Of a stretch of DNA of 42,812 nucleotides, positions 35,334 to 36,553 are shown piece after piece (positions within the stretch are counted from its first letter, which is position 1; the number at the start of each line of letters is the position of its first letter). Under the pieces are notes generated by a model. The model was not told where the DNA came from. It did not search any database and saw nothing but the letters and a program-made list of their open reading frames with translations. Source of the DNA: a virus. Taxonomy: Duplodnaviria; Heunggongvirae; Uroviricota; Caudoviricetes. The stretch lies in IMG/VR virus record IMGVR_UViG_2872192773_000007. One strand, 5' to 3'. Position numbers and translations under genes: made by a program.

Positions 35334-36106
35334 GATGGCATCCTCGAGTGATAAGTTAATTAACTCACCACCGAGGTTTTCCACGACCATAAGGGTGGTG
35401 AGACGTACAGGGGTGGAAATACCGGTCACTCGAGAACCCGGCCAGTCTTGCGACTGCCCTGCACATCCCACCATAATTTGAATGGAGCTGTGCATTACGC
35501 ATAAAAAAACCGCTTCAGCGCGGCTATGCGCTCGAGTAACGTTCGGGTTTCCACGCCCGGCCCCCGTTTTATGAGGTGCAGATGCACTATAATTCCACCC
35601 GTTCTGGTTTTCAATAGCTACATTCAACATTTTCTCTTACCTTTCATCACCGAAGTGAACTTTGTTGATGCGGTGCCTGGTGCCTCCAGGTGACGTTAAC
35701 CAGTTAACAATTAACGCCGGATACAGGGAAACCCATAACCACCCGATACGTGGGAACTAATCGCTTTTTAACTGTTCCGCGTGCGCTCAGCCGCATTCAC
35801 CGCATCACAAAATTCACTTTAAAAAGGGCGGACATCAGCCAGCAATGAAACTGATGCCGCCAAAGGTACCAATCAACATGGAGTGTTGTGGCGTGGTTGT
35901 CACTTAAGCGTATGGTCAACCTGACAACCCGGTGTCCTCAACGGGGAAGGAATAACTCCGCCATACTTACCGCCGCGTCATTTCGCGTTGTGTGCCTGCT
36001 TTTAACTACGTCAGGCGAGGTGGTTCCTGTTATTCCCCAACAACAAGAAATTTGTATAATCTGAATACCCCAACAATAAGAAGAGTGAGCAAGTGATGTA
36101 TTAGCG

Positions 36107-36343
36107 ATGTCAGCTCTCAAAGAGACTGCATCAATGTTAAAATTATTCAATGAAGCAAAAACTCAGGCTGAGGTTGATCGCGCTGTGTCTGAAATAAACT
36201 CTAAGTTGTCAAGCATTCAGCTTGAATATTTGTCTCTCATTGATGAGCTGACAATCTCTAAAAGCAATGAGGCTGCGCTCAAAGCAAAACTCACGGAGAT
36301 AGAAAAGTTTAAGTTCCAAAGTGAAGACTGCGAACCTCGCTAA
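36107..36343 (+). CDS. hypothetical coiled-coil protein (78 aa), AT-rich
   Basis: Predicted helical/coiled-coil sequence; TGTATAAT extended -10-like element upstream; weak RBS. Confidence 0.3.
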   Translation: MSALKETASMLKLFNEAKTQAEVDRAVSEINSKLSSIQLEYLSLIDELTISKSNEAALKAKLTEIEKFKFQSEDCEPR

Positions 36344-36553
36344 TTGATTACTGGAACGATTGTGTATGCCAGACAGTGCAATACTAGCTCTGGCAAGATT
36401 ACCATGTATTTTTGTCCAGAATGTTTTGCGAAGAGAGCAATATCTATATTGCAACCTTTCCCTATCGAGGAAGGCGATAAATATACGAAAACTCAATGCC
36501 CCTCCTGTAAAAATGAGTATCTCATGGACTACAATTTCAATAATGATTTTTGA
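36344..36553 (+). CDS. hypothetical zinc-ribbon protein (CPEC...CPSC)
   Basis: Starts immediately after the upstream TAA (TTG or internal ATG start); two CxxC pairs 24 residues apart. Confidence 0.3.
   Translation: MITGTIVYARQCNTSSGKITMYFCPECFAKRAISILQPFPIEEGDKYTKTQCPSCKNEYLMDYNFNNDF

Follow-up and report, generated by a model that had tools for sequence, protein, structure and literature searches.

A disrupted Rip1-family gene, probably the relic of an anti-phage defence, in a decayed lambdoid prophage of Shigella flexneri type

Results

Two reading frames separated by a single stop codon

We describe here a locus on the + strand of a 42,812-nucleotide stretch of viral DNA (IMG/VR record IMGVR_UViG_2872192773_000007; the whole stretch is referred to below as the window), in which two small reading frames follow one another in the same frame and are separated by a single TAA. 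The original prediction placed two ORFs here, with the TAA at 36341–36343 and a CPEC-24 aa-CPSC pattern in the second, and all of these are present at those positions. The features are as follows.

36055–36060, + strand: TATAAT -10-like hexamer, with a TG at 36053–36054 directly 5' of it (TGTATAAT)
36107–36343, + strand: ORF1, ATG start, 78 aa; N-terminal helical half, residues 8–85 of the 155-aa intact form
36341–36343, + strand: nonsense codon TAA; CAA in intact alleles (Gln86 in the 155-aa form, Gln79 in the 148-aa form)
36344–36553, + strand: ORF2 remainder (untranslated), coding for a C-terminal beta-rich, four-cysteine, zinc-ribbon-like domain; the mechanical ORF is 69 aa

Beyond the TAA the frame stays open up to a TGA at 36551–36553, with CPEC coded at 36413–36424 and CPSC at 36497–36508, the inner cysteines lying 24 residues apart, and with a SILQP motif C-terminal of CPEC in ORF2. 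The GC content of the 500 bp at 36001–36500 is 0.396, against about 0.45–0.58 in the flanking windows, and the earlier description of the region as more AT-rich than its surroundings is thus correct.

The signals for expression are less simple. The original prediction of an extended -10 stands as far as the hexamer is concerned, which is a perfect -10, but not in its extension, as the TG-TATAAT spacing is one base off the canonical TGnTATAAT; the hexamer is the same in all close alleles but reads GTTAAT in most distant relatives. A consensus scan called no promoter at TATAAT 36055–36060 because the -35 is poor, and a promoter function of the site is putative. Neither ATG 36107 nor, by reading, any of TTG 36344, GTG 36362, and ATG 36404 has a Shine-Dalgarno-like sequence of its own upstream. 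The sole terminator-like match in a scan of the + strand falls within ORF1 and is probably due to chance, and in Rfam neither the gene nor the leader matches an RNA family.

Intact alleles encode a single protein

The whole stretch is present in four of 5426 complete E. coli genomes searched by megablast. In E. coli RMDEC465 the locus is 99% identical, has CAA at the position of the stop, and carries one annotated CDS of 148 aa; window and RMDEC465 differ by four substitutions, the stop among them, in 551 bp. The corresponding RefSeq entry, the 148-aa 'hypothetical protein' WP_490185909.1 (RMDEC465, locus L001, 6108–6554), begins at an internal Met. Homologues with a sense codon in place of the TAA, a search for which had been suggested along with the original prediction, thus include RMDEC465 and also the alleles coding for intact 155–156-aa proteins in E. 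coli, S. sonnei, and Salmonella, in which the codon is again CAA and all other residues are identical. An exact-sequence look-up places the 78-aa window product, the 148-aa product, and several 155–156-aa proteins in one 90% cluster, and the amino acids of ORF2 in the window are, the stop apart, identical to those of the intact allele P0175.

The arrangement is not a chance one, both because the 99% identical E. coli locus has CAA and a single CDS and because the fused protein and phrog_1244 match along their whole length (E=3.7e-33; PHROGs gives the function of phrog_1244 as unknown). By these comparisons a single prophage gene underlies the two small reading frames, each of which is one half of it. 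The suspicion that one gene had been broken by a stop is borne out by the sense-codon homologues and by a family that is single-chain, and the idea of a functional two-ORF module gives way to a single gene with a stop and a 10-bp deletion, described below.

Relationship to Rip1

Scans of the repaired protein with the Pfam, NCBIfam, and PADLOC (2023 release) libraries gave nothing above threshold, the best sub-threshold matches being Zn_ribbon_4 (14.8 bits, cut-off 30.3) and ECs_2282_CxxC (13.9 bits, cut-off 37). These libraries may be older than the description of Rip1 (ring interacting pore 1) and silent for that reason. A word-indexed search with a single protein returned two matches only, and it was a full HMMER search together with an alignment query that brought out the family. 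With P0001, a Salmonella homologue 89% identical to the window protein, as query, the full HMMER search recovers 243 cluster representatives at E<=0.001, nearly all of them 140–180 aa long and matching end to end. The four cysteines are invariant in 42 of 42 aligned family members, and Y75, G83, Y87, and L115 (the Leu of SILQP) are nearly invariant in the same alignment.

When the 42-member profile is compared with the PDB there is one match, to chain L of 9oox (Rip1), with E=4.1e-37 over profile positions 5–150, and the repaired window protein alone matches 9oox_L with E=9.1e-7. The title of PDB entry 9OOX names Escherichia phage HK446 Rip1 with the Enterobacteria phage T6 small terminase, HK446 Rip1 being gp37. 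P0175 is 24% identical to HK446 gp37 over 143 aa by BLASTP (E=7e-11), and hhalign against HK446 Rip1 gives a probability of 99.6% (E=4.4e-24). ORF1 aligns with the N-terminal part, and ORF2 with the C-terminal half, of HK446 Rip1 in 9OOX.

The AlphaFold2 model of P0001, for which 26 family sequences were used, has a mean pLDDT of 88 and predicts helices at residues 4–23 and 27–79 and beta-strands within 83–147. In a Foldseek comparison of this model with the PDB, only 9oox_L and 9oox_M are significant (probability 1.00, TM 0.68/0.82), all other matches have E>0.6, and there is no DNA-binding fold among the matches. Structure prediction and profile comparison, both proposed as checks with the original prediction, lead to 9OOX Rip1, from the P0001 model, the 42-member profile, and the repaired protein. 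The first ORF had been described as a coiled coil; it is indeed helical, but is better regarded as the long N-terminal helical half, which is pore-forming in Rip1, than as a generic coiled coil. A moderate hydrophobic moment (0.3–0.44) in the N-terminal helices does not weigh either way. The product of the intact gene is a single chain of about 155 aa, in which long helices at the N-terminus are followed by a beta domain with four cysteines, and by homology and modelled fold it is a member of the Rip1 family. At about 24% identity to HK446 Rip1 it belongs to a divergent enterobacterial subfamily.

Lesions in the window copy

Relative to the intact alleles L016, L018, and L020, DNA alignment places a 10-bp deletion (TTGATCTATC) between 36099 and 36100 of the window, a lesion absent from the original prediction, with the following result.

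36093–36104, + strand: native-start remnant and deletion scar, now GTG ATG TAT TAG (alignment with L016, L018, and L020)

The intact alleles read GTG ATG TTT GAT CTA TCA TTA GCG ATG at this position, coding for (M)MFDLSLAM. In the window the native start (GTG36093/ATG36096) now opens a three-codon mini-ORF, ATG TAT TAG, and as the deletion destroys the native start region, ATG 36107 corresponds to the internal Met8 (Met9 in the 156-aa form). The deletion is common to the window and E. coli RMDEC465, and the RMDEC465 allele may itself be impaired because of it.

The second lesion, the TAA, sits in the first beta-strand after helix 27–79, at the boundary between the helical and the Cys-rich domains according to the model and the alignment, and it therefore splits the pore-forming half from the ring-binding half. 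Sensor and effector halves are combined in one polypeptide in intact alleles such as P0175 and P0176, but not in the window copy; with the 5' deletion and a nonsense codon at the domain boundary the sensor half would not be made. Programmed read-through was considered and rejected, the stop being UAA followed by U with no recoding signal evident; UAA-U is the most efficient termination context in E. coli.

Records of the 78-aa product extend to 515 contigs, all under the name Shigella or S. flexneri; eight of them, large genome contigs of 1.8–4.6 Mb, were read and share the same neighbourhood. At three of these eight S. flexneri loci homology to the intact allele stops at the equivalent of about 36400, within ORF2, an IS-type transposase gene beginning about 70 bp beyond that point. 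With a stop and a 5' deletion in the window, and with homology breaking off next to IS-type genes in sister genomes, a recently inactivated gene is the simplest reading, and the window copy is most likely non-functional.

Genomic context

In intact prophages the gene is on the + strand, with Gam, RecE, YdaE, Rha, and Phd/ParE to its left and a ydfC-like gene, DUF1391, and a cI-like repressor to its right, all on the - strand. The window conforms to the intact loci in that the + strand gene lies between - strand Rha/YdaE/RecE and - strand ydfC/DUF1391/repressor. The intact gene is a stand-alone unit, opposite in strand to the early-left operon and beside the immunity region. The L016–L021 intact prophages also carry a Phd/ParE toxin-antitoxin pair at about 3674–4236 (-), between Rha and the Rip1-family gene, for which BLAST matches of these loci to the window or to RMDEC465 include no counterpart.

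The same habit is seen in relatives. HK446 gp37 is antisense and separates N from a ral-like gene and cIII; hkaP of HK620 and HK630 is antisense between cIII and N; the homologues in PhiR29_1 and vB_EcoM-689R2 are on the opposite strand to their neighbours and adjoin the repressor; and D3112 orf25 is likewise an opposite-strand, stand-alone gene. We take the antisense slot near N or kil to be the classical sieB position of the lambda, P22, and Rac maps. Tab of JBD26 and a P. aeruginosa prophage Rip1 are likewise reported to share one slot (PMC10884400, PMC13434031). The gene has the layout of a stand-alone 'moron' that is expressed in the lysogen.

To the left, Rfam reports a row of small-RNA elements on the - strand at 35391–35874, upstream of a Rha/Ash antirepressor ORF (34998–35630, -).

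35391–35478, - strand: C4 antisense RNA, Rfam 76.7 bits, above gathering
35503–35579, - strand: isrK, Rfam 59.6 bits, above gathering
35661–35814, - strand: STnc100-like match, Rfam, below gathering
35826–35874, - strand: DicF-like match, Rfam, below gathering, with a terminator-like hairpin at 35858–35831

This row suggests an antirepressor control module of the P1 immI / Gifsy isrK type. The mechanical 210-aa Rha ORF overlaps the RNAs, and the true Rha start is therefore probably further in.

The prophage is itself decayed. An IS-type transposase gene interrupts its early-left genes, and synteny with the intact prophages ends at 36708 (BLAST against intact loci), beyond which lie IS fragments, a DUF4376 fragment, and an ipaH-type gene. 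Shortly before this point is a short conserved segment that is probably a common module junction.

36582–36620, strand not assigned: right-hand junction piece of 39 nt, found 92–100% identical in 2366 of the 5426 complete genomes of E. coli as well as in many lambdoid phages

The IpaH-type effector gene (38156–39871, -) adjoins the DUF4376 fragment (37353–37976, +) immediately to the right of the broken early region, and has LRR_TTSS and NEL Pfam matches in identical S. flexneri loci. Repeated pairs of transposase ORFs crowd the window, with 100+272 aa at least four times, 136+301 aa twice, and 167 aa three times.

480–1636, 2164–3437, 11305–12461, 29926–31082, 33472–34745, and 41124–42280: examples of transposase ORFs

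The 136+301-aa element at 33472–34745 is called as one gene of 409 aa in matching loci, with HTH_Tnp_1 and rve Pfam matches. Such a density of IS elements is as expected for Shigella.

A conserved leader with varied cargo

Upstream of the gene is a segment that is conserved across phages with differing downstream genes.

35987–36092, + strand: conserved leader/promoter block of about 105 nt, about 80% identical in SfIV, Kati, PhiR29_1, and Klebsiella Kp4882-1

It contains two direct repeats, CCCCAACAA[C/T]AAGA, at 36035–36049 and 36071–36085, and a column analysis reveals extreme conservation of its core. The two CCCCAACAAYAAG repeats flanking the -10 look, from their sequence, like (ARN)n Hfq-type motifs. 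A scan of IMG/VR found the leader core GTNATTNCCCAACAACAAG in at least 120 viral contigs, and it is followed at a fixed offset, with the ORF start about 44–47 nt downstream, by at least six unrelated cargo families. Among the matches listed, these are distributed as follows.

SfIVp36-like family, 144–148 aa: 44 cases
Rip1 family: 36 cases
LprI-like secreted protein: 7 cases
Several other families: 1–3 contigs each

The alternative cargo proteins have no PADLOC match, and their Pfam matches are weak or unrelated. The leader looks like a conserved junction for the swapping of lysogen-expressed accessory genes.

Discussion

We conclude, with a probability of roughly 85%, that a pseudogene of the Rip1 anti-phage defence family lies here, in the remains of a Rac/Qin-like lambdoid prophage on a chromosome of Shigella flexneri type. 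The family is a known one, described only recently, and the gene is among its divergent members; as the copy in the window has been hit by both a 10-bp deletion and a nonsense codon, it is a relic or pseudogene of the Rip1 family and not a working member.

The properties of Rip1 are taken here from a review (PMC13434031), which draws on Patel et al. (2026, Nature 651:1060). In that account Rip1 is a prophage protein that is non-toxic alone, and phages escape it through mutations in portal proteins, in Pseudomonas phages, or in the small terminase, in E. coli phages. Twelve Rip1 subunits ring an 11-mer small-terminase ring, with the C-terminal half touching the phage ring and the N-terminal part being an amphipathic helix; the assembly is a pore that permeabilises liposomes and cells, so that the infected cell is killed prematurely. 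Homologues are described there as widespread in proteobacterial prophages (PMC13434031).

The intact enterobacterial gene probably works as the HK446 and P. aeruginosa Rip1 do. By homology to these two, the intact protein would be harmless by itself; late in infection its C-terminal domains would dock round the ring-shaped portal or small-terminase oligomer of the phage, the N-terminal amphipathic helices would then assemble into a membrane pore, and the outcome would be early cell death and aborted phage maturation. Both the trigger and the pore activity of this subfamily are inferred from characterised Rip1 proteins to which it is about 24% identical.

The likeness to Rip1 of HK446 (gp37) and P. 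aeruginosa extends to the length class (about 155–165 aa, as in the intact protein), to the order of long N-terminal helices followed by a C-terminal beta domain with CxxC...CxxC and a SILQ motif, and to the antisense, stand-alone place in lambdoid prophages; the differences are the low identity of the intact subfamily to HK446 Rip1 (about 24%) and the disruption of the window copy. HkaP of HK620 and HK630, grouped with phrog_1244, shows homology along 95% of its length (tblastn E=4e-9) at about 25% identity. It is annotated as a 'putative superinfection exclusion protein', a label that is positional only, with no function entered in the annotation, and the only paper retrieved for hkaP is a biosensor one that uses the flanking intergenic regions. 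SieB of lambda, P22, and Rac occupies an equivalent slot, on the opposite strand in the early-left operon near N or kil, and both it and the Rip1-family gene are prophage-expressed and proposed to abort a superinfecting phage. However, SieB is an inner-membrane protein without a four-Cys domain, and when the repaired protein and its homologue in PhiR29_1 were scanned with Pfam (assumed to include a SieB model) there was no match to the SieB family, with sub-threshold zinc-ribbon and coiled-coil matches only. Tab of JBD26 resembles Rip1 as a constitutively expressed prophage defence directed against late virion proteins, but it is 83 aa long, is reported to be without similarity to proteins of known function, and blocks tail assembly by way of the tape measure protein, with anti-Tab as its partner and without a pore (PMC10884400).

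Other readings of the locus have to be weighed against that of a Rip1 pseudogene. In one, the helical peptide and a C-terminal peptide re-initiated at TTG 36344 together form a two-protein defence module, and the position of the stop at the boundary of the two halves, the TTG directly 3' of the TAA, and the freedom of ORF2 from further amino-acid changes relative to P0175 are all compatible with such a split. We nonetheless consider it very unlikely, as the three candidate restart codons of ORF2 are without Shine-Dalgarno-like sequences, the start of ORF1 is damaged by the separate 5' deletion, and the family is overwhelmingly single-chain, while a pore assembled on a ring template plausibly requires one chain to carry both sensor and helix. 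The loss of homology inside ORF2 beside an IS-type transposase gene in three of the eight S. flexneri genomes shows that ORF2 is not being maintained, and there is little further decay because the allele is very young, with only those four substitutions separating it from RMDEC465. An equally poor prospect is that function resides in the truncated 78-aa helical peptide alone, which the host would have kept as a small protein, either membrane-active or dominant-negative. The peptide has an ATG, figures among the gene calls of hundreds of Shigella assemblies, and keeps the helical half that forms the Rip1 pore; but a pipeline gene call is not evidence of expression, the native start and ribosome-binding context have been removed by the 10-bp deletion, ATG 36107 would depend on coupling to the three-codon mini-ORF, and a peptide lacking the ring-binding domain has no known way to template oligomerisation.

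The original prediction had also offered a regulator, host-takeover, or defence factor as the role of these genes, of which the last is supported by membership of the Rip1 family while nothing points to the other two. A transcriptional or post-transcriptional regulator built from a coiled coil and a zinc ribbon, or a host-takeover factor outside defence, is suggested by weak sub-threshold zinc-ribbon and coiled-coil Pfam matches and by the adjoining immunity region, and yet is most improbable: the Pfam and NCBIfam matches are all far under curated cut-offs, the Foldseek matches are without a DNA-binding fold, and the end-to-end homology and the fold match are to Rip1, a solved defence protein. 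Least probable of all, and next to negligible, is a sequencing or assembly error at the stop in an organism whose gene is intact; the difference from the intact allele is a single base, but the stop recurs across assemblies, with the exact 78-aa product on 515 contigs that include eight independent large genome contigs of the same neighbourhood, and so is not an error of sequencing. Taken further than a swapping junction, the leader could be a dedicated expression and recombination cassette and, as a separate matter, the split Shigella allele could be a working two-piece Rip1, a proposal that we regard as unlikely.

The reading as a Rip1-family pseudogene has several consequences. It assigns a family and a probable mechanism to a 'hypothetical protein' of E. 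coli, Shigella, and Salmonella prophages, and it identifies as a relic the S. flexneri copy that hundreds of contigs list as a gene of 78 aa, adding one more case of Shigella genome decay in which a prophage-borne defence has been lost. The intact allele of S. sonnei and E. coli is a divergent Rip1 and a candidate for the study of trigger specificity. At the apparent swap site behind the conserved leader, the other cargo genes are candidates for lysogen-expressed functions. If it were indeed a cassette, lambdoid prophages would be exchanging unrelated lysogen-expressed cargo (Rip1, SfIVp36-like, LprI-like, and others) at one spot, and the uncharacterised cargo families could be new defence proteins.
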